Assembly (NCBI GenBank): GCA_032128875.1
Contig: JAVLKG010000018.1
Location: forward strand, 1 to 64,000
DNA from: Candidatus Melainabacteria bacterium 17Bon1m
GTDB lineage: Bacteria; Cyanobacteriota; Vampirovibrionia; Obscuribacterales; Obscuribacteraceae
Length of the DNA: 64,000 nucleotides
Direction: 5' to 3'
Each line of letters starts with the position of its first letter. Position 1 is the stretch's first letter. Shown here piece after piece: positions 20,079-60,961 of this stretch. Made by a program: the position numbers and the translations under genes. The notes beneath the pieces were generated by a model. The model was not told the DNA's origin, did not search any database, and saw only the letters and a program-made list of their open reading frames with translations.

Positions 20079-20095
20079 TTTGATGCAGATTTGAC
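20079..20095 (+). promoter_or_regulatory. TTTGAY-N5-TTTGAY box (weak -10)
   Basis: TTTGAT gcaga TTTGAC; the position 11 nt downstream lacks a good -10. Confidence 0.45.
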
Positions 20096-20764
20096 TTTTA
20101 GCGGCACCACCGATAGTGGCGAAGCGCGGCTTCATCACAGGAAAGCAAATGAATGCTTGACTAGTGGGCGGATTTTTCTGCATTCTTGAAAAAAAGAAGT
20201 TTCATTTGACGATAGAGGTTTGGTAACTAACCCCGGCTATGTGAGCAGTACTTTTTCGCGGATTTTCAGGCATTTGAGTGTGCCGCAGAATTGTCGGCAC
20301 GAAAACAGGCTCAAAGGCAAAGGTCTTGCAGGCGGTCACCATCCTCATGATGGTGGCCAGCACCAGGCGAATTACTACATCGGTGTCACACTCAGGCAAT
20401 TCACCGAAGCGATCAATTCTCGGGCGGCGACGCCCTCTTGATCTGGGACGGGCGGATGAGCGCCTCTCTATCTGGGAGCCGTATTTTGAAAAACGCAAGC
20501 ACGCATGCGAAGGAGAAGGCAAATGACACTTAGCGATGCGCCGGACGACAAGGTGGTCGAGGCGTACTGACTAGGATTCAGAGCTGACCGCTTTCTGGGC
20601 TATTTCGAGAGAGGCACCGGCGCGAAACCACGCGTGCCGGTGTTTGCGCCGTAGTGAGCGTCGTCGGCGCGCATATTCCTTTTTTTCGCGGCTGACACAG
20701 GCGACTGTGGTCGGTCTCAACAAGCAAGTGTGCGTCGTTCGACGCAATCAGAAAGGATCATGGT

Positions 20765-21040
20765 ATGACAATCATCATGGCAAAATTTATCGTCTCCTCC
20801 GTTCTCGGCTTCGCCTTCGGTTTCGTGAGCTTCAAGGGTGGGGGTGAAAACCCGCTGGGCCCGGTTTGGTTCGGTGCCTTTGTTTTGTCCGTCGTGGCAT
20901 TCGTGGCTGCAGCCCTAATCTTTGTTTTCGGGCAAGAACTTCCGTGGGCGTCATTCGGCTTGATCGAGTGGCTCTTCATTGTCATGGACATCGGTTATCT
21001 GCTAGGCGGGATGACCGCCGGGATGATCGACCAACGTTGA
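20765..21040 (+). CDS. Small membrane protein
   Basis: About three hydrophobic segments, AAAGGA SD. Confidence 0.65.
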   Translation: MTIIMAKFIVSSVLGFAFGFVSFKGGGENPLGPVWFGAFVLSVVAFVAAALIFVFGQELPWASFGLIEWLFIVMDIGYLLGGMTAGMIDQR

Positions 21041-21264
21041 GGCGCAAGCAACTCAGTGCGCATTCGCACTCTGTCTGAAATGCGCGCAGTGCTTTAGTCT
21101 TACCGGGAGCGCTTGCTGCAGTCCGAACAGCCAATCCGGCAGTTTTGCATTGCAGTAAGCCGCTCTCGGCATTTGTCTTTTTACCTGTTTGTGCTGAAAT
21201 TCTGCCGAAACCGGCCTGTTTGAAGAGGTTGCGCTAGCAGATGAGTGAATTGGAGTTTGTTTCG

Positions 21265-21298
21265 TTTGATGATAATTTGACAGCTCGCGCGATATAAA
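21265..21298 (+). promoter_or_regulatory. TTTGAY-N5-TTTGAY-N11-(-10) promoter box
   Basis: TTTGAT gataa TTTGAC agctcgcgcga TATAAA. Confidence 0.65.
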
Positions 21299-21304
21299 CG
21301 ATTC

Positions 21305-21383
21305 ACGAGTTGCGCGCAGGCAAATGAACGCGCTGTCGTTTTGAAGAGAGTGATACTACCAGTGGTGTGTCGTCTCTTCCTTT
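21305..21383 (+). ncRNA. Candidate sRNA (~80 nt)
   Basis: Lies between the promoter box and an imperfect hairpin (21343-21379) followed by CTTT; no ORF. Confidence 0.3.
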
Positions 21384-21827
21384 GCTTCGCTGATTATATC
21401 TGCAAAGCCAAATTTGCGTTGGAAAAAACATAATTGATATGCTGCTCGGAAGAAAAATCCGGGCCTTTCGTGCTATTGTAATGGTATCGCATATGGTGGC
21501 GCTGCGCTATCCTTGAAGCGTGTTAAAAGGTTCGGCGTCCGGCTTTTGAAGCCTGCCTGCACTCCGGTCGGAAGCTGCCGTCGGTTGTGAGATTCGCGTA
21601 AGCATTGCCAGTTTTATATGGCGTTTTTTCTTGGTGGATTTCGTTACCTGATGCTTGACTGCGGCGCTGCGCGGCATTCAAAGTGTTGATATCAATGTTC
21701 TTTTCCTTTTCTGCAAACAGGTGAAATTTCTGGCTTAACGCCGCATTCGCCGCAACATCTAAGTATCTTTCGCCGCACACTTCGTGCGCTGATGAAAGTC
21801 GACATGCAGTTCAGGTAGCTTTGCTCA

Positions 21828-22202
21828 ATGCCAGTCTCTCTATTTCAGGCTGGTATCGAGCAGCGCTATGCGTTGCGAAGAACCGAGAGGTTGTTCATGC
21901 TCAACACTGATACAGTTATGCGACTCATGCACAGGGCTCTTTTTGGAAAGGAATCGTGCGTCCTTTTCGTCGGCATAAAATTATTCGGTGCATTTTTCCA
22001 ACTCGCCGGCGCTGCATCATTGGAAGCCGCTCTATGGTCTGCAATCCCCTGGTTGGGATCGCTTTTCGTGGACGTCATCTGGTATACGACACCGGTGTTG
22101 TTGAAGAAAATAGCGCCGCTGATTCGACTGCCGACGGTACCCTGGCGTGATAGTGCAATGTCAGTGATGGCGCGGCTTCGGCTGCGCTTCTCATTTGCTT
22201 AA
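21828..22202 (+). CDS. Hypothetical membrane protein
   Basis: Hydrophobic ORF followed by a hairpin; start uncertain. Confidence 0.45.
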   Translation: MPVSLFQAGIEQRYALRRTERLFMLNTDTVMRLMHRALFGKESCVLFVGIKLFGAFFQLAGAASLEAALWSAIPWLGSLFVDVIWYTTPVLLKKIAPLIRLPTVPWRDSAMSVMARLRLRFSFA

Positions 22203-22344
22203 GGCAGAAAGGGAGGACGAATTTTCGTCCTCCCTCTGCTCAAGCTTTGCTGAATGCGCAGGAGAAGAAGTCTCAATCTGCGCATTCAGGAAAGCTTGAC
22301 TTTCCTGTTGTTGAAGCTCATCACCTGAAGAAGGAGTTTTGCGA

Positions 22345-22566
22345 ATGAAGACAAACGTGCGCGCTTGGCTCGTCGGCGAATTTGATTTTCGCTGCGCTCA
22401 GCTGGTTTTATACGTGCTTCTTAGCGTGTATGCCGGGTGGGTTTGTACGCCGAGCTTCCCGTTCGGCTTTTGGCAAGGGTTGAGCTTGCTGCTAGTCGTG
22501 GCGGCATTGGCACTGCTGTGTGCGAGTGCTTGCCGCGGTTTGACTGCCTCGGCAACAAAAAAGTGA
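22345..22566 (+). CDS. Small two-TM protein
   Basis: AAGGAG SD before ATG 22345; two hydrophobic helices. Confidence 0.6.
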   Translation: MKTNVRAWLVGEFDFRCAQLVLYVLLSVYAGWVCTPSFPFGFWQGLSLLLVVAALALLCASACRGLTASATKK

Positions 22567-22712
22567 ATGCGTGTCCCAAACAAATTGAGGACCATGCTTA
22601 GCTCGGCTTCGGTCGAGTTGAAACCGCAGTCCGTGACGCCACCGTCAGTGGTGTTGAACGGTGCTGCAATCTGGCAAATAGGGCGCATGTGCCCTGAAAA
22701 CGGAGAATTGTC

Positions 22713-25025
22713 ATGGAACTGATCAAAAAGTATCCGAATACCGCTGCGGCTCTCGGCGGCATCTCGCTGGTCGCCTTCTTCGCTGCAATGTCTGCTTTGC
22801 CGCCGACTGGAGTTTTGAAGAACCCGCCCGCGAACATTGATCAGCCGACCCCTGCTGAGAGGATTTCTCAGCTCGATAAGCCGAATGTCATCGTCACCAA
22901 CAACGAGATTATTCTGCCTGACGGGCAGAAGGTTACGTGGCGGACGACGACAGGAGAGCATGTTGGCGACTCGCATGCCAACCAGCTGATTGATACCTCG
23001 TCGCTGCCCAATTTCTTGGGCTCCGCCGTGTCGGGATTCGGCTGGCTTGTCTACAACCTGCTGGTTCCTGCCGGCATCGCCACCCTCTTTCTCCGCTGGG
23101 TTTTCGGCCAGGGCTTGCCCGGCGCGAATCTTCTGAGAGGAAATCTGGGCGGCGGCGGCGGATTTCCCGGTGGCGGCATGCCTGGCACTGCCGGTAATAC
23201 CGCCGGCAAGGAGATGGGTCGCTGGGTGAAACCCGAGGAGATCAGCATTCCGGGCTTCGACGCCGTGGCCGGCGTCCCGGAAGCGGTCACTCAGATGAAA
23301 AAGATGAAGAAGAAGATTCTCCAGCAGGCGCGAACTGTCGGGCGCGTCAAGGAGATCGAAGACGAGAAGGCGGTCGCCAATCAGGCTAAGAAGGTGGCGC
23401 TGACTGTCGAAGAGCTCATGCTCAAGGCCAAGGAGCATATGGCGGCCTCGACCTTCGGCGGCATCATCCCGAACTGCGCGCTGCTGATCGGACCGCCCGG
23501 CACGGGTAAGACGCTGCTCGTCAGCGCCCTCGCCAAAGAATGCGGCGTGCCCTTCTTCAGCATCTCCGGTTCCGACTTTGTCGAGATGTTCGTCGGCTTG
23601 GGCGCCGATCGCGTTCGTCGCATGTTCGCGGATGCGCGCTCGAACCGTCCCTGCATTCTCTTCATCGACGAAATTGACGCTGTTGGTGCGGCCCGCGCCA
23701 ATGGAGTGAATTCCAATCCGGAGAAGGATCAGACCCTCAACCAGATGCTCGTCGAGCTTCAGGGCGTCGGTACTGAAACTTCCAACTTCGGCCTCTGGAT
23801 CATCGCTGCCACCAACCGCGATGACATTCTCGACCCGGCGCTCATGCGTCCGGGCCGCTTTACGTGGAAAGTCCGGGTCGATCCGCCGAACACCGAAGGC
23901 GCCGTCAAGGTGCTCAAGGTGCACGTGAAGAAGCGTGGCATGAAGCTCGACGAAAGCGTCGATCTCTTTGCTTTCGCTTCGGTTCTGCCGGGTCTTTCCG
24001 GCGCTGATCTAGAGAATGTCGTCAATGAGACGGCACTTTTCGCGGATGAAACGCGCGAAGCGGAGATCGAGTCCCTGCTCGCGGGCGGGCATTCGCAGGA
24101 AGAAGCCGAACGGCTGGCGACCAAGAAGACTGTGACTCAGGAGGACCTTTTCGAAGGACTTCTGCGCCACCTTATGGGTCTGAAGAAGGAGGCGGTTCAG
24201 TCCTTCCTCTCCATTCTCAACACCACGGTGCATGAAGGGGGCCACGCTCTGGCGACTGCTTACGAAAGGCATGTCGGCCGCTCCAAGGATCGTGTCCGCT
24301 TTATCGTCGTCGAGCCGCGCGGCAATGCCGGCGGTGTTTGCTTCAAGACTCCGGACGAGGCGAGCGGCACCAAGAGCATCAGCTCTGTGGATGCCGATGC
24401 CGTGTGCGCCTTCGGCGGCTCGGCGGCTCAGATGGTGGTCTTGAAAGAGAAGGACTCGGGACCGGACAACGACTTTGAAGTCGCGTCCGACATGATTTAC
24501 CGTGCCATCGCCCGTTGGCACGCCGATGAGAAAATCGGTCCGATCTCACTGGGCAAGCGCGGCCAGATGATGGCAACGCAGATGGGAGATCAGGCGCGCA
24601 ATATGATCGACGAAGCTTGCCGCCTGCGCAGCAAGCAGCTCTACGCGCGCTCGTGGTGGATCATGAAGCTCTTCGTCAAGTCCGAGCATCTCTGGACGAT
24701 GTATCGCGAAATTCTCGAGAAGAAGGTGATGCGTCAGGACCGTTTTGAGGCGCTCTTCGAGCTCATGCTCAAGGACGTCGAAGCGCATCCGGACTGGCAG
24801 ACCCAGAGCCTCGAAGAATTCATGCGCGCCGGCGGCGACTTCGCCGAGTGGACTCCTCCGCGCCTGGATGACACTACGGTGGAATTCGTGAACCGCCAGG
24901 TCGAGAGCCTGCGCAAGTTCTACGAGTCCCTGCCCAAGGCTTCCGAGCCTGAGGCTGGCACCGCGGCGCTGCTGGCTGGTGCGAACCAGCAGCCTGCAGC
25001 TCGTGTCGAGGCACAGACGGCCTGA
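22713..25025 (+). CDS. ftsH: FtsH-family ATP-dependent zinc metalloprotease (divergent paralog)
   Basis: Two N-terminal TMs, Walker A GPPGTGKT, pore loop FVG, Walker B FIDEID, SRH LDPALMRPGRF, HEGGH, and GPDND third ligand. Confidence 0.9.
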   Translation: MELIKKYPNTAAALGGISLVAFFAAMSALPPTGVLKNPPANIDQPTPAERISQLDKPNVIVTNNEIILPDGQKVTWRTTTGEHVGDSHANQLIDTSSLPNFLGSAVSGFGWLVYNLLVPAGIATLFLRWVFGQGLPGANLLRGNLGGGGGFPGGGMPGTAGNTAGKEMGRWVKPEEISIPGFDAVAGVPEAVTQMKKMKKKILQQARTVGRVKEIEDEKAVANQAKKVALTVEELMLKAKEHMAASTFGGIIPNCALLIGPPGTGKTLLVSALAKECGVPFFSISGSDFVEMFVGLGADRVRRMFADARSNRPCILFIDEIDAVGAARANGVNSNPEKDQTLNQMLVELQGVGTETSNFGLWIIAATNRDDILDPALMRPGRFTWKVRVDPPNTEGAVKVLKVHVKKRGMKLDESVDLFAFASVLPGLSGADLENVVNETALFADETREAEIESLLAGGHSQEEAERLATKKTVTQEDLFEGLLRHLMGLKKEAVQSFLSILNTTVHEGGHALATAYERHVGRSKDRVRFIVVEPRGNAGGVCFKTPDEASGTKSISSVDADAVCAFGGSAAQMVVLKEKDSGPDNDFEVASDMIYRAIARWHADEKIGPISLGKRGQMMATQMGDQARNMIDEACRLRSKQLYARSWWIMKLFVKSEHLWTMYREILEKKVMRQDRFEALFELMLKDVEAHPDWQTQSLEEFMRAGGDFAEWTPPRLDDTTVEFVNRQVESLRKFYESLPKASEPEAGTAALLAGANQQPAARVEAQTA

Positions 25026-25113
25026 CCGGCACTGACAAAGAGGCGGGCGGCTCAGTTCGCCCCCCTCGCTTGAAAAAAAGAATCACGTAGTTTGCGTTTG
25101 ACATGCTCAATCG

Positions 25114-25392
25114 ATGGAGAATAGCATGATTAGCAAGAAATCAATCGATGCCGTCGGGAAGCTCAAGACTGGAGCGGTGGTTCGCTTTCAGATCCTCGAT
25201 TTCAAAACCGAGGTGCCGAACCTTATGGCTGCTGATTGCCAGGCGCTTCGGGCGGCCGGGCAGAGGGTCGATTCGCACGGCACGAATATGTCAGCCGAGG
25301 TCTGGGTGATCAATACAAATTGGTCGCCGGCCGTAGAGCGCATTTTGCAGTCCAGCACGCTGAGCTACAAGTTACTCACCCGACCCGTCTAG
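25114..25392 (+). CDS. Hypothetical protein
   Basis: Co-directional ORF; a GGAG SD favours the internal ATG (MISKK). Confidence 0.55.
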   Translation: MENSMISKKSIDAVGKLKTGAVVRFQILDFKTEVPNLMAADCQALRAAGQRVDSHGTNMSAEVWVINTNWSPAVERILQSSTLSYKLLTRPV

Positions 25393-25402
25393 GAGTTTGC
25401 CG

Positions 25403-25660
25403 ATGAGCGCGGATAAGACTGTTGAAATTCTCTGGCAGTATGGACGCAACCGAATCGTGAATCGAGGCGACTTTCGGATGCTGGGCACTCGCAAAGTCGG
25501 AGAATTGCGCCTGGAGGCTCGACACGAAGACTCGACCGTCTGGTGTCTGGTCGCAGCATCCGAATTTCTCGGCTTTCCTCGTTGTGGCTATAAAAGCCGC
25601 AGCCAGGCGCTCACTCACTTGCGTGACGAAGCGACCGCCAGATTGGTTTTGGCTGCGTAG
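25403..25660 (+). CDS. Hypothetical protein
   Basis: AGGAG SD overlapping the upstream stop; ATG 25403. Confidence 0.55.
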   Translation: MSADKTVEILWQYGRNRIVNRGDFRMLGTRKVGELRLEARHEDSTVWCLVAASEFLGFPRCGYKSRSQALTHLRDEATARLVLAA

Positions 25661-25752
25661 TCAAAGATCGAGAGTTTGTGCAGCAGAAATGTCCCGGCAG
25701 AGCTAGCAGCGATGCCGGGATACCCATCAACTCAAAATAAAAGGACCAATTG

Positions 25753-26766
25753 ATGTCCTACATTGAAAACTTCCCTCTCCCTGGCGAAGAAGCTTTAATC
25801 GCCCAGGTTTTGGACGCCGTGCTCGAGAAGCAGCGCCGCGAACATCGTCCGGGCGAAGTGGCGCGCCGCAACCAGCACGCCAAGTCTCATGGCGTCGTCA
25901 GGGCTCGCTTCCGGGTTCTGAGGCAGATGCCCGGATTGCAAGTCGGTCTCTTTGCCGAACCTCGCGTGTATGACGCGCTGGTGAGGTTCTCCAATGGTGG
26001 CGGCGGTCCCAATCAGCCAGACGCGCTGCCCAACGTCCGTGGCGTCGCCATAAAAGTGTTGGGTGTGCAGGGCAAGAAGCTGCTGCCGGGCGAGGAAGAT
26101 TCTCTCGAGCACGATTTCCTTCTCGCCAATCATCCGACCTTCTTCTGTTCTTCCATCGAAGAACTACTTTTCCTGATGAAGGGCGACAAGCGCAAGCTTT
26201 TGCTCGAGAATCCGCGGCTGGCGCTGCGGCTCGGGCAGTCTTTGCTCAAGCCTGTCGCCAATCCGCTCCATCTGGAATACTTTTCGCAAGTGCCGTATCG
26301 GCTGGGCGGTTTTGCCTGCAAATACTTCTTGCGCCCCGCCGAGCATGGTTGTTCCTTTCCGGACCTGGTCGACGGCGACTTTCTTCGTCATGCGCTGGCG
26401 GACACGCTTGCGCATAGGCCCTGGCGTTTCATCTTCGGTGTGGAAATGGCATCGATCGGCTTCATGGGGGCAGCGATCCGTGGCACCACCCAGGGTGCCG
26501 ATACCCACTTGATCGAAAATCCCTCGATCAAGTGGAATGGCCCGCAGTTTGCCGTCGCCGAGGTGACCATCTTGCACCGTTCTGAGCCGATCAAGGAGTC
26601 GGACGGCGAGGCGCTCTCCTGGAATCCTTGGCGCGTACTCCCCGAGCATGAGCCTCTCGGCTGGGTCGGGCGCACTCGCAAGGCTGTGTACGGCGCCGAT
26701 TTCAAATGGCGGACGGAAGAAAACGCCAAGCTTGCCGGATTCGGCAAGCCGGGCGGTTCCTTCTAA
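25753..26766 (+). CDS. Catalase-related heme protein (small catalase/allene-oxide-synthase-like fold)
   Basis: RNQHAKSHG distal His, VRFSNG, DFLLANHPTFF, YFSQVPY, WNPW..HEPLG, RKAVY proximal Tyr. Confidence 0.85.
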   Translation: MSYIENFPLPGEEALIAQVLDAVLEKQRREHRPGEVARRNQHAKSHGVVRARFRVLRQMPGLQVGLFAEPRVYDALVRFSNGGGGPNQPDALPNVRGVAIKVLGVQGKKLLPGEEDSLEHDFLLANHPTFFCSSIEELLFLMKGDKRKLLLENPRLALRLGQSLLKPVANPLHLEYFSQVPYRLGGFACKYFLRPAEHGCSFPDLVDGDFLRHALADTLAHRPWRFIFGVEMASIGFMGAAIRGTTQGADTHLIENPSIKWNGPQFAVAEVTILHRSEPIKESDGEALSWNPWRVLPEHEPLGWVGRTRKAVYGADFKWRTEENAKLAGFGKPGGSF

Positions 26767-26852
26767 ATCGGCGCCTAGTCCTGCTTTAGTTCGCTTCTAC
26801 AAATCAAAGTGGCAAGGCAATCTCGCTGCGCCATTTTTACAGGGAAATCGAA

Positions 26853-28817
26853 ATGACAAAACCAGGTATCAACATTGGCTGGATGGATCAATCTGTCGAT
26901 CCAGGCAAAGACTTCTATCGCTATGCTTGCGGCAGCTACTTGAGGAACGCCACCATCCCTGCCGGCTATTCGCGTTGGGGTTCGTTCTATGAGTTGCGAG
27001 ACCGCAGTCTCAATCGCGTGCACGACATATTGAAGGAGTTGTCCGGGCGCGATGATTTTTCGACGATGTCGGCCGAGGAGCAGAAGCTTGCCTTGATTTT
27101 CAAAACCGGCATGAACGAGGCCGCCATCGAAGAGCAGGAGGAATATCCGCTGTATACGGTCTTCGAGCTGATCGAAACTGTTCGGTCTCCTGACTCCTTG
27201 GCTGCGGCGCTTTCCTTGCTTCACCAGATTGGCGTCGACGCTCTTTTCGGTTTCGGTTCAATGCCTGCTCTGGACGGCAGCGGAGTGCATATCGCCGCCA
27301 TCGCTCAGGGGGGACTCGGTCTTCCCGACCGCGACTTCTATCTGAAAGATGATGCGGCGACACTGCAACGTCTCGAGAACTACGAGCAGCATATCGAGCG
27401 CATGTTTGCGCTGGTGCGCGGCTATTCTTCGCTCGCTCCCAAATATGCCCGGGCTGTTGTTGCATTCGAGAAGAAGCTCGCTCAAATCTCTATGTCCAGA
27501 GAAAAGCGGCGCGATCTGAATGCGATCAATAATCCGACGGCGCGTTCGGCTCTGCTTGCCGCTGGAGGTTTCAACTTCGCTGTCTATCTCGAGACAATGG
27601 AGGCGCCGGTCTTCGAGACTTTAAATGTCTTGCAGCCGGACTATCTGAGCGAACTTGGCAATATTCTTTCTGAGATCTCTTACGAAGACTTGCGTGCTTA
27701 TCTTATCTGGCACGTGCTTGTCTCGACGGCTCCGTATCTGTCGAAGGCTTTCGTAGAGGAGAACTTCGCCTTCTATCAGAAGACGCTGAACGGCATAGCC
27801 GAGCCGAGCCCTCGCTGGCGCGAAGTTGTTGCTTTCGCTGAAGGCGCGATGGGCGAGGCGATCGGCAAGCTTTATGTGGCGCGTTATTTCCCACCCGAGG
27901 CCAAGGCGCGGGTTCTGGAAATGATCGAGAACGGCCGCCAGGTTATGCGGCAAGCTTTGCAGGGGGCCGAGTGGCTTTCGCCCGAGAGCCGCGAAAAGTC
28001 CTTGCTCAAACTTGATCGTTCGACCTTTAAAATCGGCTACCCGGACAAGTGGATTGACTTTGAGGATCTGTACCTCATCGGCAGCTACGTGGGCAATCGC
28101 TTTCTTGCGTCATACTTCCATTATTGGCGCGATCTCAAGAAGATCGGGCAACCCTTCGACAAGAGCGAGTGGAATATGACACCGCAGACGGTGAATGCTT
28201 ACGCCAATCCGCTCCTGCTCGAAGTGGTTTTCCCTGCTGGTATTCTGCAGCCGCCGCTCTTTGATGCGGATGCCGATGACGCCGCCAATTACGGCGCCAT
28301 CATGGCGGTTATTTTGCATGAGTTCGGCCACTTCTTCGATGACCAGGGCGCCAAGTTCGACGCCGACGGTAAGCTCAACATGCAGTGGACTGCCGATGAC
28401 TATGCGCGCTTCATGGAGCAAATTCAGTTGCTTCGCAAGCAAGCGTCGCGCTACACCGTCGGTCCGAACCAGGTGCCTCTCAAGGGGGAGCTGGTTTCGG
28501 GCGAAGCTGCCGCCGATCTCAACGGCGCTCGACTTGCCTTGCGCGCTCTCAATATCGCGCTGGAGAAGAACGGGCGTCAGTTCGATGGGAGCGGCTTTAC
28601 CGACGAGCAGCGATTCTTCATTGCCTTCGCTCAGGTGTGGTCTGTGATCATTACCCCGGAGGCTCTGGAAAATCAAGCCATGACCGATCCTCACCCGCCC
28701 GGTGAGTATCGGTGCAATGGCACCCTGGCGCATATGGAAGAATTCGCCGAGGCCTTCGGGCTACCGGATAATGCTCCCATCATGCTGCCCAAAGAAGAGC
28801 GCACCCGCATCTGGTAA
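26853..28817 (+). CDS. pepO: M13 (neprilysin/PepO) metalloendopeptidase
   Basis: DFYRYACG, VNAY, FPAGILQPP, HEFGH, GEAAAD, DPHPP..RCNG. Confidence 0.93.
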   Translation: MTKPGINIGWMDQSVDPGKDFYRYACGSYLRNATIPAGYSRWGSFYELRDRSLNRVHDILKELSGRDDFSTMSAEEQKLALIFKTGMNEAAIEEQEEYPLYTVFELIETVRSPDSLAAALSLLHQIGVDALFGFGSMPALDGSGVHIAAIAQGGLGLPDRDFYLKDDAATLQRLENYEQHIERMFALVRGYSSLAPKYARAVVAFEKKLAQISMSREKRRDLNAINNPTARSALLAAGGFNFAVYLETMEAPVFETLNVLQPDYLSELGNILSEISYEDLRAYLIWHVLVSTAPYLSKAFVEENFAFYQKTLNGIAEPSPRWREVVAFAEGAMGEAIGKLYVARYFPPEAKARVLEMIENGRQVMRQALQGAEWLSPESREKSLLKLDRSTFKIGYPDKWIDFEDLYLIGSYVGNRFLASYFHYWRDLKKIGQPFDKSEWNMTPQTVNAYANPLLLEVVFPAGILQPPLFDADADDAANYGAIMAVILHEFGHFFDDQGAKFDADGKLNMQWTADDYARFMEQIQLLRKQASRYTVGPNQVPLKGELVSGEAAADLNGARLALRALNIALEKNGRQFDGSGFTDEQRFFIAFAQVWSVIITPEALENQAMTDPHPPGEYRCNGTLAHMEEFAEAFGLPDNAPIMLPKEERTRIW

Positions 28818-28933
28818 GGTTCGGGTGCGACTGACGCAAAGGCGGTCATGGTACCGCCTGTGATGACAAATGCCCGGGCGGAAATTCGTCCGCCCGGGCT
28901 CGAGCATGTTTAAAGCAAACGAAAGAGAACAAC

Positions 28934-30919: not shown

Positions 30920-31017
30920 TCTCTTCGTCCGCCGGACAGGGGACTCTCTTCGTTCCCTGTCCACGATATTCCGCAAGGAGTATGGCAATGATCTCCACTG
31001 AAGCAAAAGGAGAGTTG

Positions 31018-31227
31018 ATGAAAATCGCAATCGCTATTCTCGTGGTCTTTGCTGTGTTCGCCGCCGTTTTCTGTGCTTATACGCGCGTCCTCGCGCTCAT
31101 GGAATGCACGGGCGGTGACATCAGCGAGGAGATGGAAGAACAATTCCTTGTCGAAGACCAAATGGGTGCAAGCGCGCCTGAAGCAGCCGGCGGCAGTATC
31201 GCTATCCAGTTAGAAGTCAAAGCCTGA
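31018..31227 (+). CDS. Small protein with N-terminal signal/TM segment
   Basis: AAAGGAG SD, MKIAIAILVVFAVFAAVF. Confidence 0.55.
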   Translation: MKIAIAILVVFAVFAAVFCAYTRVLALMECTGGDISEEMEEQFLVEDQMGASAPEAAGGSIAIQLEVKA

Positions 31228-31268
31228 CCAGTCGAGGGCGGCGGCCAATAGAGTAAAGGAGCAGAAAA

Positions 31269-31748: not shown

Positions 31749-31777
31749 TGAAGCGCATTCTTTGAAGGAGAAAAACT

Positions 31778-34226: not shown

Positions 34227-34241
34227 TCAAAGGAGAAGAAG

Positions 34242-49736: not shown

Positions 49737-49828
49737 GCACCAAACGTTTGTGCTTGCCAGGCATAGACAATCGCATTGACAATTTGCCAGGGAGAAGATC
49801 GAGACTCTGATCTCGATCTTCTCCTTTT
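49737..49828 (+). ncRNA. Candidate sRNA (~92 nt)
   Basis: Promoter box, then terminator GGAGAAGATCGAGA-CTCTGA-TCTCGATCTTCTCC-TTTT (49791-49828). Confidence 0.4.
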
Positions 49829-50418
49829 GGTTGGTATTGTATATGGTGCTGTGATTGGCGTGGTTCGCGCGAGCTGGCTTCGTTAGCAAAGCCTTTTAAA
49901 CAGTAGCTTTTCTCTTCGTTTGGTGACGGAGTGGATGTTATTCTCTAGGGCTTGGAATGCTGGCACCGCTGTGCCATTGTTGGTGGTGTCAAACGACATT
50001 CGCTAGCGTGGCCACCCTGATTGTAGCTGTCCTGGTTTGTTTTAATTTCCGCTCGCATCAGAGCAATGCCCTTCAGCCTCGCCCAAAAGGCTGCCTCTTA
50101 AGTACTTTTGAGATTGCTCTGGGTTTCTTCTTCAGCGCTATTTCTTAGATTTGACGATTTGCATTTCTGATGGCAGCTCATTTAGGTTCAGGTTATTGAT
50201 CATTTCCTTTTCCGCTTCGCCATTTAAATAACTCAAGAGATTGTCGATTCCACGAAGACCGGCTTAAGCACAGCAAAATTGCTGTGCCTGGTTAATTCCA
50301 ATTTGATTTTCCACCTGTTGCAGTTTTGCTATCGGTAACTGCACACAGGATCAAGGCTGGTCTAGCTAAAACCAAAAGCGAGAGCAATGTGCTCTTGCGC
50401 AAACGAAAGGGAAACAAC

Positions 50419-51063
50419 ATGCAAAGACCAATTTTCCCCTGGGCGGTGGCACTGGCAGGACTTGTTTCTGCATTGCTGTTGCCTTTTGCGGATGTCTATC
50501 CGCTCGTGCCTGCTTATGTAAGTCAGGCATTTGCCACAGAGCATCGGTATATCCCCGAGGCTGTAGGCATGTTTTTCGCATACATGTTTCAGCATGAGAA
50601 CACGAACTTGCACTGGGTAATGAACTTCATCTTCCTTTTCTGGTTCGGCACAGTCCTCGAGAATGCGATTGGTCATCTTCGCATGCTTGCATTTATTCTC
50701 GGGACGGGCGTATTTGCTGGTCTGGCTCACTATTTTGCCGACCCTGGACTGACCATTCCTGTTGTCGGCCTGTCGGGGGTGATCATTGCGGTAATCGCCG
50801 TGCTCACTGTTGCTACTCCGCGCTTTGCTCTGGTGAGTGTTCCTTCTACAGAACTTACTATCGTGCGCATGTGGCATTTCGGCTTGCTTGTGCTCGGCAC
50901 GCAGTTCTATCACTTCTTGCAAATGGCTCCGGGGGACAAAACTGCTTATTGGATTCATTTCGGCGGCGTTGTCGCCGGACTTGCGCTGTGGTTCTTCTGG
51001 CTTCGTCAGCGCATAGACGACTTCAAGCACAGTCCTGTCGGCGAGCACTTGCTGCAGGGCTGA
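50419..51063 (+). CDS. Rhomboid intramembrane serine protease (S54)
   Basis: MFQH...HWVMN, GLSG catalytic Ser, HFGG catalytic His. Confidence 0.9.
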   Translation: MQRPIFPWAVALAGLVSALLLPFADVYPLVPAYVSQAFATEHRYIPEAVGMFFAYMFQHENTNLHWVMNFIFLFWFGTVLENAIGHLRMLAFILGTGVFAGLAHYFADPGLTIPVVGLSGVIIAVIAVLTVATPRFALVSVPSTELTIVRMWHFGLLVLGTQFYHFLQMAPGDKTAYWIHFGGVVAGLALWFFWLRQRIDDFKHSPVGEHLLQG

Positions 51064-51108
51064 ATATGCACTTTCCCTAAACCTTCCTGAATAGAAGGAG
51101 TAAGAAAT

Positions 51109-52290
51109 ATGAATGCGATATCGAATCTTCGGCTGCGCTCGGCTGGCTCGCTTGCTCTGGCATGTGGTGCCGGTGTGAAAGATGCTTTCGAGCATCCTTT
51201 CGGCCAGTTGCTCTTCTACAGCTGGCTTGTGATGGTGCTGCCGCATGCATATTGGCCGGTGATGGCGGCGATTGTTTTTGCCGTCATGATCCACGAGGTG
51301 GGCCACTGGGTGGTGGCAAGAACCTGCGGTTATCCGATCGATACTTTCTCGATCGGCATTCCGGCTGGACGTGTTCTTGAATTGGGTCGCTTAGGCGGCA
51401 CGATGATTCAGATTACGCCCTACTGGTTTATGGGTGGTTACGTTACTTTCGAGCCGACCGCCGCGAGCGTGATGAATACTCCGGTCTGGAAGCGTGCTTG
51501 CGTTCTGCTCGCCGGCATCGCCTTCAATCTTCTCGGGGCTGTTGGTCTCTATTCGGCAAGCGCCTATATCGTCGGTCATGAAGTCTTTCGCGATGTGCCG
51601 GTCGTGAGTCGCATCAATCAGACTGGTTATGCCGACAAGGCCGGCATGCTTTCCGGTGATACAGTGCTTGCGGTCAACGGGATCGCCACAGGCGGCGCCA
51701 GGCAAGTGATCGTTGCGATTGGGCAGCGCACTTCAGAAGCTGTTCGCTTCGACGTGCTGCGTGCGGGGCGTTCGCTGGAGATAACTGCTCATGCGCCGCT
51801 CAGTCAGAGGCTTGGCATTGAGGTTGGTTTTGTCGAGAGGCATCCGATCGATTTGGCGAGCGCCGTGTCGAGAGGGGCGTCATCCGTCTGGAAAATGCTT
51901 TCTATGACAGGACAGCTTATCTGGACGTCCATCGTCGGAGCCGATGAAGCAGGGACTGCTTCCGGCAAATCGGCGAAGCAAGTTGGTTTTGAGGTCCACG
52001 GAGTGGTCGGGTTCATGCAATTCGCTGCCGGGTCTTTCTCGAAAGGTTGGGCTTCATTCCTGGCGATTGTGGCTGCGTTCAACATCAACTTGGCTATTTT
52101 GAACCTGCTGCCGATACCGCTCCTTGACGGCGGTCATGTCTTCTTTCTTGTGATTGAGAAGTTGCGGGGCCGACCCGTGGCTGTCGAAACGCAGATGAAG
52201 ATCATGAAAGTCTGCATGTGGGGACTGCTTGCCCTGGCACTCTTCGGACTGTACAACGACCTTGCTCATCCATTGTCCGGAATTCACTGA
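51109..52290 (+). CDS. rseP: RseP-like M50 metalloprotease with PDZ domain
   Basis: HEVGH, FSIG, GGYV, AGIAFN, PDZ (AGMLSGDTVLAVNG), NLLPIPLLDGG. Confidence 0.88.
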   Translation: MNAISNLRLRSAGSLALACGAGVKDAFEHPFGQLLFYSWLVMVLPHAYWPVMAAIVFAVMIHEVGHWVVARTCGYPIDTFSIGIPAGRVLELGRLGGTMIQITPYWFMGGYVTFEPTAASVMNTPVWKRACVLLAGIAFNLLGAVGLYSASAYIVGHEVFRDVPVVSRINQTGYADKAGMLSGDTVLAVNGIATGGARQVIVAIGQRTSEAVRFDVLRAGRSLEITAHAPLSQRLGIEVGFVERHPIDLASAVSRGASSVWKMLSMTGQLIWTSIVGADEAGTASGKSAKQVGFEVHGVVGFMQFAAGSFSKGWASFLAIVAAFNINLAILNLLPIPLLDGGHVFFLVIEKLRGRPVAVETQMKIMKVCMWGLLALALFGLYNDLAHPLSGIH

Positions 52291-52401
52291 AGGGCATGAG
52301 AGTGCCTGGGGGTGTCCGCCCTTTCATTATGAGCCGGGCGGGCGCTCATTTTTGCAATAAGAGAAGATCACGCGTCTTCTCTACAGAAAAGGAGACTGAC
52401 T

Positions 52402-53244
52402 TTGTCAAAAGAAGAGAAAAAGCCACTGAGCGGAAAAACGCTCTTCATCACTGGTGCCAGTCGCGGCATCGGACTCGAAATTGGAAAACGTGCCGCTGCC
52501 GATGGTGCCAACGTCGTGGTTGCCGCTAAATCCGAGAGCGAGAATCCGAAGCTTCCCGGCACCATCTACACGGCCGCCAAGGAGATTGAAGATGCCGGCG
52601 GCACCGCACTGGCAGTAAAATGCGACGTGCGTAACGAGGACGAGATCATTGCCGCAATTGAGGAGGCGATTAAGACCTTCGGCGGGATCGACATTCTCGT
52701 CAATAACGCTTCGGCGCTCTCCATGACCTCTACGGAAAAGACTGAGCTGAAGCGCTTTCGTCTGATGCATGAGGTCAACGGCGCCGGTTCTTTCTTCATG
52801 GCCAAGCACGCCATTCCCCACCTGCGCAAGGCTGCGAACCCGCACATCCTTACCATGTCGCCGCCGCTTTCGCAGATGTCCGGTAAGTGGCTGGGACCAC
52901 AACTGGCTTATGCTATGTCGAAGTACTCGATGAGCATGGTCACAATGGGGCTTGCTGCTGAGCTGTCTCCTGATGGGATCGCAGCCAATTCGCTCTGGCC
53001 CAAAACCCTCATCGATACGGCTGCTGTTCGTCATTTGCCGGGCGGTGAAGAACTTGTGAAACACGCGCGCTCCGCTCGTATCGTCGCGGACGCTGCATAC
53101 CATATTCTTACGCGCTCTGCCAAGGAGTGCACCGGCCAGTTCTTCGTCGACGAGGATGTTCTGAGAGAGTCCGGCATCGAGGATCTCGAGCAGTACGCCG
53201 TGGTGACGGGCAACAAGTTGCACGCCGACATCTTCCTGGATTAA
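52402..53244 (+). CDS. Short-chain dehydrogenase/reductase (HSDL2-like)
   Basis: TGASRGIG, NNAS, YAMSK, NSLWP; TTG start after AAGGAG. Confidence 0.92.
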   Translation: MSKEEKKPLSGKTLFITGASRGIGLEIGKRAAADGANVVVAAKSESENPKLPGTIYTAAKEIEDAGGTALAVKCDVRNEDEIIAAIEEAIKTFGGIDILVNNASALSMTSTEKTELKRFRLMHEVNGAGSFFMAKHAIPHLRKAANPHILTMSPPLSQMSGKWLGPQLAYAMSKYSMSMVTMGLAAELSPDGIAANSLWPKTLIDTAAVRHLPGGEELVKHARSARIVADAAYHILTRSAKECTGQFFVDEDVLRESGIEDLEQYAVVTGNKLHADIFLD

Positions 53245-53566
53245 GGCTGCGGTGTGATAGCTCGAACTGTGTATGCGCGAGAAATCGCGCATACACTTTC
53301 TACTTCTTCTAGCTTTCCTTCGTCACCGGTATACTAGACAAGGTGGTAGGTCGTTAGTCTTCCGCCCGGGTATCAAGTGAAGTTTGGCGAATACGATGGA
53401 AAGCCTGTGCAAATCAAGGTCTATCCGCCTGGTCTTGCACGTGGTGTTGATTCGCCAGGCACAGTCGGTTATAGCACCGGGGTGGGTCTCGGGCGTGGAA
53501 GCAAGATGGTTATTGCTCCTCATATGGAATGACCACAAAGGCTTCTTGAGCATAGAACAGGTAAAC

Positions 53567-53611: not shown

Positions 53612-53645
53612 TTTGACGAAAATTTGACGGGCAAATGACTAGCAT
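53612..53645 (+). promoter_or_regulatory. TTTGAY-N5-TTTGAY-N11-(-10) promoter box
   Basis: TTTGAC gaaaa TTTGAC gggcaaatgac TAGCAT, upstream of the SLT gene. Confidence 0.7.
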
Positions 53646-53686: not shown

Positions 53687-54787
53687 ATGACTGAATTGCA
53701 TTCGCGTTCCTCTTTGGAGCGCCGCCATCCCCATGAAGATCGTGATTCTGCAAATTCTCATGCCCGAGGCTGGGCTGATGTTTACAGCAGCAGAATAGAA
53801 AGACCCAATCCTTCCGTTTACCAGCCTGGACAGTCCGCGCACGAGTTTGTCCAGAAGCATTTGCATGGAACGGAACTGTATGATTCCGCCGAGACCAAAG
53901 GCGGGACGAACCGTTCGCACGGTGCCGCTGGCGGAGACAAAGGTCGCTCAGACAGAGCAGGCGGAAGCGAGCGCTCGGCTTTGGGGGCGCCCGATGATAC
54001 CCAAAGGAAAAGGGAAGTACATGAAACTGGCGCCAAGATAGCCGACCATCTCAAGAAAGATCCTCATGACTTCAAATACGTATTTGGCGAGCTTGATGCA
54101 TTGCACAAAAAGGACCCCGCACACCTGGGCGAAAATCTGCGCGAAGTAAATGATGCCTTGCATGAGAAGGGGCTGCTCAAAGGAATGTCGATTGTTCGCG
54201 ACAATAGAGATGGGCATGAAGGTTGGGCTGTCGTAGCTGAAGATAAGAGCAACGTAAATCCCAAACATAACAGAACGATGGTCAGCACCAGTCATGAAGC
54301 CCATGAGTCCTCGACATTGAAGCATCATTATTCAAGCATGCATTACAGACGCGGGCACTATAACGGTTGGCATCAATCCGTCGAAGGCGGTGGTGGCGGT
54401 GATGGTGGCTTCGATAAACACGCCGTTGGCGGGCATGTTCCACCGGGTGCACGTCGCGAATTGATTGAAAAGGCTCTCCAACTGGCGGGTGTGCCGGTGA
54501 CAGAACAAAATATCTCCGCTGTAAATAAAATCGTCACGCGAGAGAGCGGATGGAATCCGAACATTACAAACAACTGGGACATCAACGCCAAAAGAGGTCA
54601 TCCCTCAACGGGTTTGATGCAGACGATACCCTCTACGTTCTCTCGATATGCGCTGCCCGGAATGAACAACAATATCCATGATCCGCTCTCTAATCTGGTT
54701 GCAGGAATACGCTACGCAGAGGCGCGATATGGACGGCACGGTCTGTCGGGTGTCGCCAAAGTAGCGAGCCGTCCGGGCGGATACTAA
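53687..54787 (+). CDS. Protein with C-terminal lytic transglycosylase (SLT) domain
   Basis: RESGWNP catalytic Glu, NNWDINA, GLMQTIPSTF, DPLSN..AGIRY..RYG. His-rich disordered N-terminus; no signal peptide. Confidence 0.88.
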   Translation: MTELHSRSSLERRHPHEDRDSANSHARGWADVYSSRIERPNPSVYQPGQSAHEFVQKHLHGTELYDSAETKGGTNRSHGAAGGDKGRSDRAGGSERSALGAPDDTQRKREVHETGAKIADHLKKDPHDFKYVFGELDALHKKDPAHLGENLREVNDALHEKGLLKGMSIVRDNRDGHEGWAVVAEDKSNVNPKHNRTMVSTSHEAHESSTLKHHYSSMHYRRGHYNGWHQSVEGGGGGDGGFDKHAVGGHVPPGARRELIEKALQLAGVPVTEQNISAVNKIVTRESGWNPNITNNWDINAKRGHPSTGLMQTIPSTFSRYALPGMNNNIHDPLSNLVAGIRYAEARYGRHGLSGVAKVASRPGGY

Positions 54788-54835: not shown

Positions 54836-54869
54836 TTTGACGAGAAATTGATATCGCCATTCGTATAAC
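54836..54869 (+). promoter_or_regulatory. TTTGAY-N5-TTTGAY-N11-(-10) promoter box (variant)
   Basis: TTTGAC gagaa ATTGAT atcgccattcg TATAAC. Confidence 0.65.
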
Positions 54870-54875
54870 TTGTAC

Positions 54876-54961
54876 AGAGCTTATGTTTAACGCGACAGTG
54901 GCTCTCAGAGGACGAATAAAAAGGTGTCGAAGCTGGAGCCGGCTAGTCCGCTCCAGTTTTT
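54876..54961 (+). ncRNA. Candidate sRNA (~86 nt)
   Basis: Promoter box, then terminator CTGGAGC-loop-GCTCCAG-TTTTT (54933-54961). The next gene is convergent, so there is no downstream ORF to drive. Confidence 0.45.
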
Positions 54962-58974: not shown

Positions 58975-59113
58975 TCTGGAATTCGATGGTTGCGGACAGA
59001 CGTGAATATTGTATCCCGAAGAATTGTAGACATTAGGAGACGGTCAAACGTGGACAAGGCGGTCGATAATGTAAAGCCTCACGGTGACTGGATAATCGGC
59101 TGGCTCTGATGGA

Positions 59114-59147
59114 TTTGATGAGAATTTGACTGGGGCGCGTGCACCAT
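59114..59147 (+). promoter_or_regulatory. TTTGAY-N5-TTTGAY-N11-(-10) promoter box
   Basis: TTTGAT gagaa TTTGAC tggggcgcgtg CACCAT, upstream of the 59220 gene. Confidence 0.7.
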
Positions 59148-59219
59148 GTCAGCACCAATCATCTGCGCACAGCGATGCGAACCACGCCACCGATTTCAAC
59201 AGCTGCAGGAGTTTTACGA

Positions 59220-60845
59220 ATGGCAGAGCAAGATTTAAAGGGCAATTATGATTCACAGCGAGGCGTCGATAAAGAAGCGGCGTCTGATGCTAGGCAGGTA
59301 AGGTCGGTCTACGAGCACGAAGGTGCGCAAAAAGCAGTGCAACGTCTGCAGGCTGAAGTCGACTCTGTACCGGCGTCTCAACGTCAGGCTTACAGCGCCG
59401 CTCTTATGAAAGATCTGCAGTCGGACGGTAGTCGTGCCAATCTCTTGCCGGAGATGGCTCTTGCATTCGGCGACGCCCATAGGGACAGCGTTTCTGAGGG
59501 TGGGTACGTGACACGGTCGCGAATTGCTGCAGCAGTTCAGAATGAGAAAAATCCAGTCTATGCCGAGATGTACCGGCAGTTTGGCGACAAATTCAAAGAT
59601 ATTCGTCATGAGAAGCAGAATCAATCCTGGATATATGGAGATCACTCCTTTGCGCCCGGCATTCTCAATGACGCCAATCACTGGGTCGGCAACAAATTGA
59701 ATGAAAAAGTTGGCGCGGCTTGGGGCGGTGGAGTCAGTGTTGATGATCTTGCAAAAAGAGTTGGTGAGGATGGACAGAAGATCGACAAGCGCAATAAAGA
59801 TCGCCAAGCCCTTGGATTGCTCGCCAGCAAGCCTGAATTGTTCGATTACGTAGCGCAAAATGACGGGCAGATTTCTCGTTCAGATGCAGAAGCGTTTCGC
59901 GAGCAAGTGCTACTCGGCACGGGCGAGGAAGGAAAACGATTGAGAGAGCGTTTTGGCAAGACTCCTCTGGAGCAAGAAAGACTTACAAATGCCGCCGGCG
60001 CCCTGGTTGATTCTTTCGACCATCCGGCAAACTTGGACGGGGCAGCCGGTTCTGTCCACGAGGATGGTTGGGACCTATATGGAAACAACCCATTTGGCGG
60101 CGATTACATGACCAGGGAGAGCCTTGCTCGCGGTTTGGGTTATAGAAGCCCTCAGGATGCTCAAAAGAATGTTCACAGCGACGCTAGAGGTCTCCTCTCG
60201 GCAAATCCGGATGTTTCATCCGCCAATGATTTTTCTCAAACGGCTCAGCGCCGTGGAGACGGTCCCTGGCAGGTCTCGGAACATATGCTTGCAGGACAGA
60301 ATAAACATTTCGAAAATCCGTTCGAAGCACAGAAGATGCTGACTGATGTTCTGAAGCAAAGTAATTTTTGGACAAAAGACAAGCAAGGCGAGCAGAAGGT
60401 GACGCCGGAAAACAGGAACGAAATGCTTGGCGCAATAAAAGATGCTGAAGCGAAACGCTCAGAGCAGAGCGGTGCTGCTGAAAACAATGATCTATCCCGC
60501 TGGTTTGCCGCCCGGTATCCTGAGGAGATGGAGGGCAAGTCTCCTGCCAGAGCTGATGTTGAGCCACTATCGGACTTCGGCAATACGCGATTGCGCGGAC
60601 CCAAGGACGGTCCAAGAGCGATAGCTTCGCGCATGATTCATGGACAGGAGCAATTTTTCACCGATCCGCACAAAGCGGTGGCAGACCTTTCCAGCGCGAT
60701 TGGAGTGAAGGCAGGCATTCATAATCACAGGAGAGGCGCAGAACAAGTGACCGCGCGAAACGTCGACAGCGTGATCGCCAACATCGAGAAGACAGGCAAT
60801 AAAGAGCTGCTTGAATGGTTCAAGCGTCGATATCCCAAAAACTGA
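59220..60845 (+). CDS. Orphan protein with duplicated C-terminal (LysM-like) domain
   Basis: AGGAG SD before MAEQD. Two repeats, DF..T..R..DGP..(V/I)..M..GQ..F..P ... WF..RYP. Confidence 0.8.
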   Translation: MAEQDLKGNYDSQRGVDKEAASDARQVRSVYEHEGAQKAVQRLQAEVDSVPASQRQAYSAALMKDLQSDGSRANLLPEMALAFGDAHRDSVSEGGYVTRSRIAAAVQNEKNPVYAEMYRQFGDKFKDIRHEKQNQSWIYGDHSFAPGILNDANHWVGNKLNEKVGAAWGGGVSVDDLAKRVGEDGQKIDKRNKDRQALGLLASKPELFDYVAQNDGQISRSDAEAFREQVLLGTGEEGKRLRERFGKTPLEQERLTNAAGALVDSFDHPANLDGAAGSVHEDGWDLYGNNPFGGDYMTRESLARGLGYRSPQDAQKNVHSDARGLLSANPDVSSANDFSQTAQRRGDGPWQVSEHMLAGQNKHFENPFEAQKMLTDVLKQSNFWTKDKQGEQKVTPENRNEMLGAIKDAEAKRSEQSGAAENNDLSRWFAARYPEEMEGKSPARADVEPLSDFGNTRLRGPKDGPRAIASRMIHGQEQFFTDPHKAVADLSSAIGVKAGIHNHRRGAEQVTARNVDSVIANIEKTGNKELLEWFKRRYPKN

Positions 60846-60869
60846 GTTAGCTCGAGAACCCAACCCTCC

Positions 60870-60899
60870 GGCGCCACCATCTCAGGATGGTGGCGCCTT
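60870..60899 (+). terminator. Hairpin after the 59220 gene
   Basis: GGCGCCACCATC-TCAG-GATGGTGGCGCC; weak U-tail. Confidence 0.55.
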
Positions 60900-60927
60900 G
60901 CCTTCAGGTGCGTTTTTCCAGTCGTTC

Positions 60928-60961
60928 TTTGACGAAAATTTGATGGCTCAATTTCTATTAT
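60928..60961 (+). promoter_or_regulatory. TTTGAY-N5-TTTGAY-N11-(-10) promoter box
   Basis: TTTGAC gaaaa TTTGAT ggctcaatttc TATTAT, upstream of the 60993 gene. Confidence 0.7.

Follow-up and report, generated by a model that had tools for sequence, protein, structure and literature searches.

A likely local OmpR/PhoB-type regulon, with its candidate sensor kinase and response regulator, on an accessory chromosomal island of an Obscuribacteraceae bacterium

Which protein reads the tandem repeat that recurs ahead of genes in one region of the Candidatus Melainabacteria bacterium 17Bon1m genome (Obscuribacteraceae), and which genes does that protein control? The repeat, TTTGAY-N5-TTTGAY, lies in a stretch of 64,000 nucleotides (the window; contig JAVLKG010000018.1, positions 1 to 64,000) within a 77-kb contig, C18, of a 7.55-Mb assembly that is 93% complete (G000). 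A first-pass annotation of the window had listed 11 copies, each taken to be the upstream part of a promoter, and had proposed that one OmpR-family regulator co-controls five effector-like genes and several small RNAs (sRNAs). Our analysis of the letters of this and related genomes makes it likely that the repeats belong to a local OmpR/PhoB-type regulon of the response regulator (RR) encoded at 17575..18252(-) and the sensor kinase encoded at 14568..17552(+). This sensor-regulator pair most likely turns on lineage-specific proteins and probably also protease-rich gene runs. Genes beyond the supplied list of open reading frames (ORFs) were called with a simple codon-score script, whose starts and small ORFs are approximate.

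All 11 repeat coordinates were verified, nine as exact copies and two (49090 and 54836) with one mismatch, and the ten -10-like hexamers reported 11 nt downstream of the second half-site were confirmed as given. These ten sites, all on the plus strand, are 21265..21298 (TATAAA), 41774..41807 (CATCAT), 42976..43009 (TATAGT), 49090..49123 (CATGAT), 49280..49313 (TTCAAT, only -10-like), 49697..49730 (TATGTT), 53612..53645 (TAGCAT), 54836..54869 (TATAAC), 59114..59147 (CACCAT) and 60928..60961 (TATTAT). The summary pattern TAnnnT holds strictly at 4 of the 11 sites, and YAnnnT at a spacer of 11 nt holds at 7; the conserved box at 20079..20095(+) has no -10 at this spacing. The statement that every copy lies on the plus strand was incorrect, as a variant, TTTTAC-N5-TTTGAT-N11-TTATAT, at 48999..49032(-) heads the gene at 48062..48913(-) and is conserved in the related genomes G003 and G008. 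One further site of this class, absent from the earlier list, is a variant box with the -10 TACCTT at 63356..63389(+), which precedes a small ORF (63427-63672) that was also called in G006.

With at most one mismatch the window contains 14 matches, against a mean of 1.71 and a maximum of 5 in shuffled sequence; a one-mismatch match at 58953(-), which is missing from the 13-bit matrix scan, was left uncounted. The exact repeat occurs 17 times in the whole assembly, compared with 14.7 copies expected from hexamer frequency, and nine of these copies are on C18; a Poisson test against the rate in the remaining genome gives P about 4e-16. Outside C18 the exact repeat is at background frequency. Four of the eight exact matches elsewhere come from a single tandem 11-mer run (C7:232699-232732) and have no -10. 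A matrix trained on congener sites found 13 sites of at least 20 bits in G000, 11 of them on C18, and none in the reversed control; the matches at C17:73216, which is antisense within a called gene, and C6:75689 were treated as noise or strays. The genome-wide scan thus placed the box on C18 and at background level elsewhere. Given this concentration, the excess over shuffles and the empty reversed control, the motif is real and local. The regulon that it marks is very likely real as well.

The geometry of the promoter was read from 34 congener sites, which were chosen by the box alone, so that their flanking positions were unselected; the sites are partly orthologous and therefore not independent. 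The full consensus is R-TTT(G/T)AY-(G)nnn-A-TTT(G/T)AY-N11-YAnnAT-N6-R, with R at position 0 and A at position 11 each present in 33 of 34 sites. YAnnnT was found at a spacer of 11 nt in 27 of 34 sites and in 0-5 of 34 at the nine other spacers between 7 and 16, and a purine lies 7 nt past the -10, at the predicted +1, in 27 of 34. Among 26 orthologous site pairs, core positions were 98% identical and spacers 69%, a footprint of conservation over the core. Clusters of box plus -10, sought with the initial pattern, are kept in 7 of 12 congeners and are also present in other Obscuribacteraceae genera. The proposed PhoB/OmpR-family activator geometry is therefore borne out by an 11-bp-period tandem repeat that covers the -35 position at a fixed distance from the -10. 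In 24 island stretches from the family, none of 136 sites of at least 18 bits fell within a called gene; 120 are in sense with the gene that follows, 65 of them on one strand and 55 on the opposite one, and the remainder comprise 13 convergent sites and 3 that run up to a contig end. Since the sense sites are split 65/55 between strands, an orientation set by the replichore is ruled out, and site orientation instead tracks the downstream gene.

Two regulators had been named as candidates, the OmpR-family genes at 17575 and 54967, of which the former fits the evidence and the latter does not. The protein from 17575, assigned to the OmpR/PhoB family by Pfam and predicted to be the cognate activator, has an intact set of receiver residues (DD, D52, T and K) and the recognition helix TNSVRTWMGTLRQ; it is the only called G000 protein with VRTWM in this helix (SVRTWM). 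PhoB DNA-binding domains were among its top matches in a PDB search, and it scored below every named-equivalog cut-off listed. This RR is neither PhoB nor a member of another listed named family, and the regulon does not qualify as a Pho (PhoB/SphR) regulon: the TIGR02154 cut-off was not reached, nor likewise the PhoR cut-off, and both helix and half-site differ. The same protein is the best of more than 110 G000 matches to the RR within the box islands of G107 and G108. We consider it likely that 17575 encodes the cognate regulator.

Convergent with this gene is the sensor kinase gene 14568..17552(+), whose tandem-duplicated product has 4 transmembrane segments, the His in its first half and an intact ATPase in its second half. 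Full-length homologs of the kinase adjoin the RR of the same clade or share its island in the loci examined in genera g1, g11, g32, g44 and g47, and no full-length paralog occurs among its top 12 G000 matches; the kinase is the predicted partner of 17575. Upstream of it lies a gene for a TPR protein with an N-terminal hydrophobic segment (13780..14571, +), a possible accessory component that occupies the equivalent position in G002, G003, G008 and G009. A site of the 20079 type is found about 200 nt upstream of the RR start in G003, G006 and G008, and in G000 a gene (18466-19875) is inserted between the RR and the 20079 site; an autoregulatory role of this site is possible. An extended -10-like element (18283-18291, -) also precedes the RR start by about 30 nt, and G003, G006 and G008 have elements that look similar by eye.

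The distribution of the box across the family follows that of this regulator. In a survey of 104 Obscuribacteraceae genomes, the RR clade (tree support 98/86) comprised 23 genomes: a hidden Markov model (HMM) of the 17575 DNA-binding domain retrieved 19 at 157 bits or more, with the next match at 138, and the tree added four genomes of genus g46. Every one of the 23 carries a strict box, 19 of them two or more and 11 five or more, whereas among the 81 genomes outside the clade 60 have no box, 16 have one, 5 have two to four and none has five. Within genus g47, members with the RR have 34, 23 and 15 boxes, and those without it have 0, 0 and 0. Of the 19 top-clade RRs, 15 have an exact box no more than 1.5 kb from their gene, among them 8 of the 8 that lay outside the HMM training set (two of the eight being identical), compared with 0 of 7 sister RRs outside the clade and 1 of 66 OmpR-type genes in G000. 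Regulators of the 17575 type also keep adjoining boxes in the differently loaded islands of g1, g32, g47 and g46.

The predicted promoters fall into two classes. Class A boxes (41774, 49280, 53612, 59114 and 60928) lie 25-170 nt ahead of single genes, whose GC content at third codon positions (GC3) is host-like at 0.44-0.52. The proposal of the first-pass annotation that five genes share one regulator is supported in that the regulon appears single and local, and all five begin 25-100 nt behind the predicted start (the distance of 53687 was measured from its ATG). They encode a 353-aa orphan with a hydrophilic N-terminus and short beta-type repeats (41914..42975, +), an 89-aa orphan conserved in G003 and G008 (49407..49676, +), a protein with a C-terminal SLT lytic transglycosylase domain (53687..54787, +), a 541-aa orphan (59220..60845, +) and a 782-aa protein with a PHB-depolymerase-like esterase region and a trypsin-like domain (60993..63341, +). 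The close relatives of the SLT gene are from Candidatus Obscuribacterales, and it has homologs in the island loci of G107, G108, G110 and G002. The 541-aa orphan has three G000 paralogs without a box, and its single-sequence fold (pLDDT 43) was unusable, with Atlas matches of just 0.81-0.82. The minus-strand box heads, at 79 nt, a further class A gene, which encodes a hexapeptide-repeat protein (48062..48913, -). Elsewhere in G000, a box was found at 0 of 15 paralogs of class A genes. In G005 and G006 (L005:12938-15489 and L011:4470-7003), the homolog of 41914 lies between those of 59220 and 60993, the last of which is without the N-terminal ~230 aa; targets are therefore shuffled inside the island while boxes are kept.

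The N-termini of 43 class A targets are more hydrophilic than the proteome (mean Kyte-Doolittle value -0.55 vs -0.12). The term effector-like remains a guess and is unproven, because markers of type III secretion/flagellar export, VirB4 and type VI secretion (PF00771, PF03135 and PF05591) were not found in the 93%-complete G000 (type IVB secretion was not searched), and two of the five genes have enzyme domains. Pilus/Tad-type ATPases are present in G000, and the G107 island has a coupling-protein-like gene. The suggestion of several sRNAs held in part. Box 54836 precedes what resembles an RNA of about 85 nt (54876..54961, +) that ends in a hairpin and T tract and is convergent on gene 54967; it is 96% identical in G003 and 91% in G008 and has no Rfam match. 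Box 49090 precedes a conserved 25-aa hydrophobic ORF (49157..49234, +) whose first 20 aa are identical in G003, and the three RNAs of the class B leaders may be either attenuators or sRNAs. Scans of the window for tRNAs and Rfam families found none.

Class B boxes (21265, 42976 and 49697) lie at least ~600 nt ahead of one-strand gene arrays. The first-pass annotation saw no box directly ahead of protease genes; as these three boxes head protease-rich arrays through long leaders, a regulon without the proteases is unsupported. Box 21265, conserved in G003 and G008, heads a one-direction array of about 20 genes (21897..41538, +) that includes FtsH, M13, GNAT, S41, patatin, acyl-CoA dehydrogenase, TPR and PHO4 proteins and many small orphans, at high GC3. 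Behind box 42976 come a 524-aa lineage orphan, S49 and M50 peptidases and a small ORF (43650..47414, +), and behind box 49697 a rhomboid protease, an M50/PDZ (RseP-like) protein, an SDR protein and a small ORF (50419..53532, +). Combined, the window arrays thus carry FtsH, M13, S41, S49, M50 and rhomboid proteases, patatin, acyl-CoA dehydrogenase and a phosphate transporter, and their GC3 is 0.58-0.75 against a genome median of 0.52. Similar arrays reach 75 genes in G107 and 39 in G108, where Clp, M48, nucleases, a helicase and an SbmA/BacA-type importer join the list. In the G107 C137 and G108 C11 arrays (L100, L108 and L123), an imperfect hairpin, GACTTT-GC-TGAATG ... CATTCA-AG-AAAGTC, recurs before many genes; it was not seen in the C18 arrays, between whose genes no integron-like repeats were found either.

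The class B leaders share a module that opens with a 13-bp hairpin and continues with a T tract, the palindrome GNYAC-N8-GTRNC and a TAGCGC element. In the module at 43062..43175(+), the terminator-like hairpin spans 43070-43101 and is followed by the T tract, the palindrome at 43111 and the TAGCGC element; the module at 49782..49894(+) has its hairpin at about 49790-49824, then a T tract and the palindrome at 49832; and a divergent copy at 21425..21533(+) has a hairpin and a palindrome at 21482. Over 21 copies, 98.9% of hairpin cells are paired and 10 of 13 pairs are compensatory, G-U pairs included, compared with 26-50% in slid controls. The hairpin looks like an intrinsic terminator, and class B promoters would therefore yield short RNAs or attenuated leaders. 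The palindrome, fixed about 10 nt past the leader hairpin, is also a side matter of its own: as GNYAC-YRNATNYR-GTRNC it has 310 genome-wide sites of at least 16 bits, against 6 in the reversed control, and the window copies are at 21482, 43042, 43111, 43251 and 49832. An abundant nucleoid or global protein probably binds there; NrdR is unlikely, because there are 310 sites and the majority of the 255 listed fall within genes.

Read-through from the class B promoters into the arrays is, on balance, the outcome that we expect, at a confidence well below that for the regulon itself. Its rival, confined to class B and somewhat less probable but a serious contender, is that these boxes make sRNAs of ~100-190 nt ending at the hairpin, while the arrays have separate downstream promoters, perhaps tied to a palindrome-binding protein. 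A perfect 13-bp stem and T tract shortly past the predicted start would suit such an sRNA, and the module also occurs without the TTTGAY box (C13:80457 and L121:7124) and, on C15, behind TTCAY boxes. Moreover, only one NusG was found in G000, with no paralog detected, and the class B leaders have no Rfam match, so that a processive antitermination system is not indicated. However, several genera have copies of the module where long arrays begin, an anchored logo of 28 leaders showed no conserved promoter downstream of the palindrome, and the sequence between start and hairpin is poorly conserved, unlike that of a typical trans-acting sRNA.

Several observations weigh against 17575 as the reader of the boxes. 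G005 (82% complete) has 4 boxes, and neither the RR nor the tandem kinase was found there with the queries used; in G011 (93%) a single strict box stands beside an integrase, and the clade RR was not found there. The G011 locus (C6, L019:647-12029) also has divergent boxes and an orphan gene at a distance of about 8 kb from the integrase-like gene, which was identified by eye. In G000 itself, the inserted gene leaves the RR with no exact box at 1.5 kb or less, and the RR-bearing members of genus g32 have just 1-3 strict boxes. The co-occurrence could reflect island co-inheritance instead of binding, and kin genomes are not independent; G110 (L146) and G052 (L114-L115), although assigned to different genera, share 20 kb of island at 100% identity, which appears to be mis-binning or very recent transfer. 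The box matrix was trained on congener sites that are orthologs of the window sites, and the orthologous sites were located with the same matrix. Finally, three RNA-labelled runs from one sample gave long, flat, DNA-like contigs across genes and spacers alike, whose breaks carry adapter letters and therefore say nothing on starts or expression. The RR tree mostly tracks genus, with G114 nested among g32; as it has no root or clade test, no transfer is claimed.

These points leave room for the view, which we judge improbable, that the promoters are genuine but answer to another activator, be it 54967, 74278, a further one of the more than 100 OmpR paralogs or an island protein not recognised as such, with 17575 only travelling along. 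The boxes of G005 and G011 would fit it, and 54967 sits amid boxes and, of the OmpR genes in G000, is alone in having an exact one at 1.5 kb or less. However, a search for relatives of 54967 returned 180 candidates in G000, so that the presence of two OmpR genes in the window means little. Orthologs of 54967 (at least 78%) were found only in G003, G004, G006 and G008 among 40 relatives, and they do not match the distribution of the box: G004 has the ortholog and no box, the box-bearing G002, G005, G010 and G011 have a best match of about 57%, and in G005 the gene is missing from the syntenic spot. By contrast, RRs of the 17575 type retain neighbouring boxes whatever the cargo of their islands.

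We read the region itself as an accessory chromosomal island, the arrays of which are probably of foreign origin. It is chromosomal in the single-contig genome G067 and ends beside rnj/dapA/asd in G107. It is very unlikely that the region is instead a domesticated element of phage or plasmid type, with a MotA- or AcaCD-like activator of its own reading the boxes and the two-component genes as passengers. In favour of this view are the raised GC3 of the arrays, their small orphans lined up on one strand in runs of up to 75 genes, the patchy presence of the region, ribonucleotide reductase, phosphoesterase and nucleotidase-like genes at 1-9 kb, and an array protein with 24-31% matches to jumbo-phage proteins. 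However, the scans for virion and integrase genes, which covered 34 C18 orphans (PHROGs) and 90 island proteins (Pfam) on a contig open at both ends, do not favour a phage. No capsid, portal or terminase was found among the 34 C18 orphans, where PHROGs matches were only to SLT/lysozyme domains of tail and lysis families and to accessory families; no tyrosine integrase was found in or beside the island of G000, G067, G098 or G108; and the RR was not found in viral contigs. The chromosomal location, the housekeeping border, the mostly genus-wise RR tree and the host-like GC3 of class A targets argue in the same direction. Near the left end of the window, a minus-strand block (286-8725) encodes a class II ribonucleotide reductase, DnaJ, a metallophosphoesterase and a phage-type HAD-like protein. 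One further array protein is restricted to 7 clusters. About 1.1 Mb of G000 (the first 200 kb of C5, and C7, C8, C13, C18, C19 and C23) stands apart in its higher GC and tetranucleotide composition, is nearly free of tRNAs and has many runs of genes on one strand.

That the box is the promoter type of a lineage-wide sigma factor, follows the replichore or arose by chance can hardly be credited. Although TTGAC resembles a sigma70 -35 and most window sites are on the plus strand, where GC skew is positive, the background frequency of the box outside C18 led us to reject a genome-wide promoter type, its spacing to the -10 is 10 or 21 nt and not 17, both orientations and divergent pairs occur in relatives, and 60 of the 104 family genomes have no box.

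The same geometry with other half-sites was observed elsewhere in G000. TTCAY-N6-TTCAY-N11-YAnnnT has 21 sites (control 0), and a TGTCM half-site gives 17 (control 1); both sets are dispersed through the genome (C1, C3, C4, C15, C18:74083 and others), mostly before orphan-protein genes, and some TTCAY boxes on C15 head leader modules. The genome therefore uses a promoter class with several paralogs, which suggests that the TTCAY and TGTCM sets are paralogous regulons, only the TTTGAY regulon being clustered. Sister RRs with the helix SEDTVRTCM were tried as readers of TTCAY and dropped, with 0, 1, 0 and 0 sites in four 20-kb loci.

The nearest mechanistic parallel is the Pho system of E. coli, in which the PHO box lies about 10 bp from the -10. 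The PHO box is described as two 11-nt direct-repeat units bound head-to-tail (PMC4415409) at a strict spacing to the core promoter (PMC10294691), and PhoB as a class II activator contacting sigma (PMC12802830). The present system shares the 11-nt direct-repeat units, the fixed core-promoter spacing and a winged-helix RR; it differs in its half-site (TTT(G/T)AY here, CTGTCAT in the PHO box), in the helix (SVRTWM here, TVDVHI in PhoB), in the score of 17575 (168 against the PhoB cut-off of 296) and in being local, with no pst/phoU among annotated targets. Other winged-helix proteins use 6-N5-6 or similar tandem sites, among them HilA, whose box is TTTCAT-N5-TTTCAT, ToxR/TcpP, PhoP and KdpE. ToxR and TcpP are described as binding further upstream and contacting the alpha-subunit C-terminal domain as class I activators (PMC12802830), whereas here the box lies over the -35 position and the candidate regulator has a receiver domain. 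In its organization, the system resembles Legionella LciRS-LciE, a two-component system of a patchy island whose LciR site is rare or absent elsewhere in the genome (PMC6989116), and Salmonella SPI-2 SsrAB, described as an island-encoded two-component system activating neighbouring genes (PMC2837388). Like these, the pair described here is on a patchy island and is predicted to activate its neighbours. LciR differs in using an inverted repeat with one target, against a direct repeat with 12-13 sites per 43 kb here (34 per genome in G107), and SsrB in using a palindrome and controlling type III secretion, against a direct repeat and long leadered arrays. Leader attenuation or processive antitermination of long operons is known from LoaP, RfaH, put and EAR. 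As in those systems, a long leader with a terminator-like hairpin precedes one-strand arrays of 4-60 kb; unlike them, the hairpin here is trailed by a genome-wide DNA palindrome, and neither a NusG paralog nor an Rfam match was found. The promoter mechanism is thus textbook and, given LciRS and SsrAB, local island-encoded systems of this kind are already known; in the literature searched, no description turned up of the box, the regulator clade, the duplicated kinase or the leadered arrays.

We propose that the convergent tandem kinase (14568-17552) would phosphorylate one OmpR/PhoB-family RR, likely that of 17575-18252, and that a dimer of this protein would bind the repeats directly, its two winged-helix domains sitting head-to-tail on the 11-bp period. 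Acting as an activator and not a repressor, the bound protein would let the box replace the -35 and would recruit sigma70-RNA polymerase to the -10 located 11 nt downstream, with transcription predicted to begin about 7 nt past the -10. Regulator, kinase and predicted targets share one accessory chromosomal region, patchily kept across Obscuribacteraceae. Class A promoters would express single lineage-specific proteins via short untranslated regions, and class B promoters would drive leaders of 450-1400 nt with an early terminator-like hairpin, followed by one-strand arrays of proteases, lipases, nucleases, transporters and orphans. Our best guess for the purpose, weakly held, is inducible degradation and import of macromolecules from other cells or debris. 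A bolder version is doubtful, namely that a single-chain pseudo-dimeric kinase system switches on a 50-200 kb 'feeding or attack' programme in Obscuribacteraceae, made up of exported hydrolase-like proteins, each with its own promoter, and of 20-60 kb arrays encoding proteases, lipases, nucleases and peptide importers, the arrays being transcribed past the conserved terminator through an undescribed antitermination that involves a genome-wide palindrome-binding protein, as one of several paralogous box-specific OmpR regulons organising the orphan proteome of the order.

The Obscuribacterales are uncultured and have large, orphan-rich genomes with more than 100 OmpR-type regulators, and no assignment of a regulator to its site turned up for them in the literature searched. 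The type of switch is familiar, whereas the regulator and the gene island appear undescribed; what stands out is how confined and how large the regulon is, together with its duplicated kinase and its leadered arrays. The analysis names a specific predicted regulator with a kinase, a binding site and a set of targets, all open to testing in vitro or in E. coli. It also groups dozens of orphans into one predicted co-induced programme, which would offer a handle on the lifestyle of the order.

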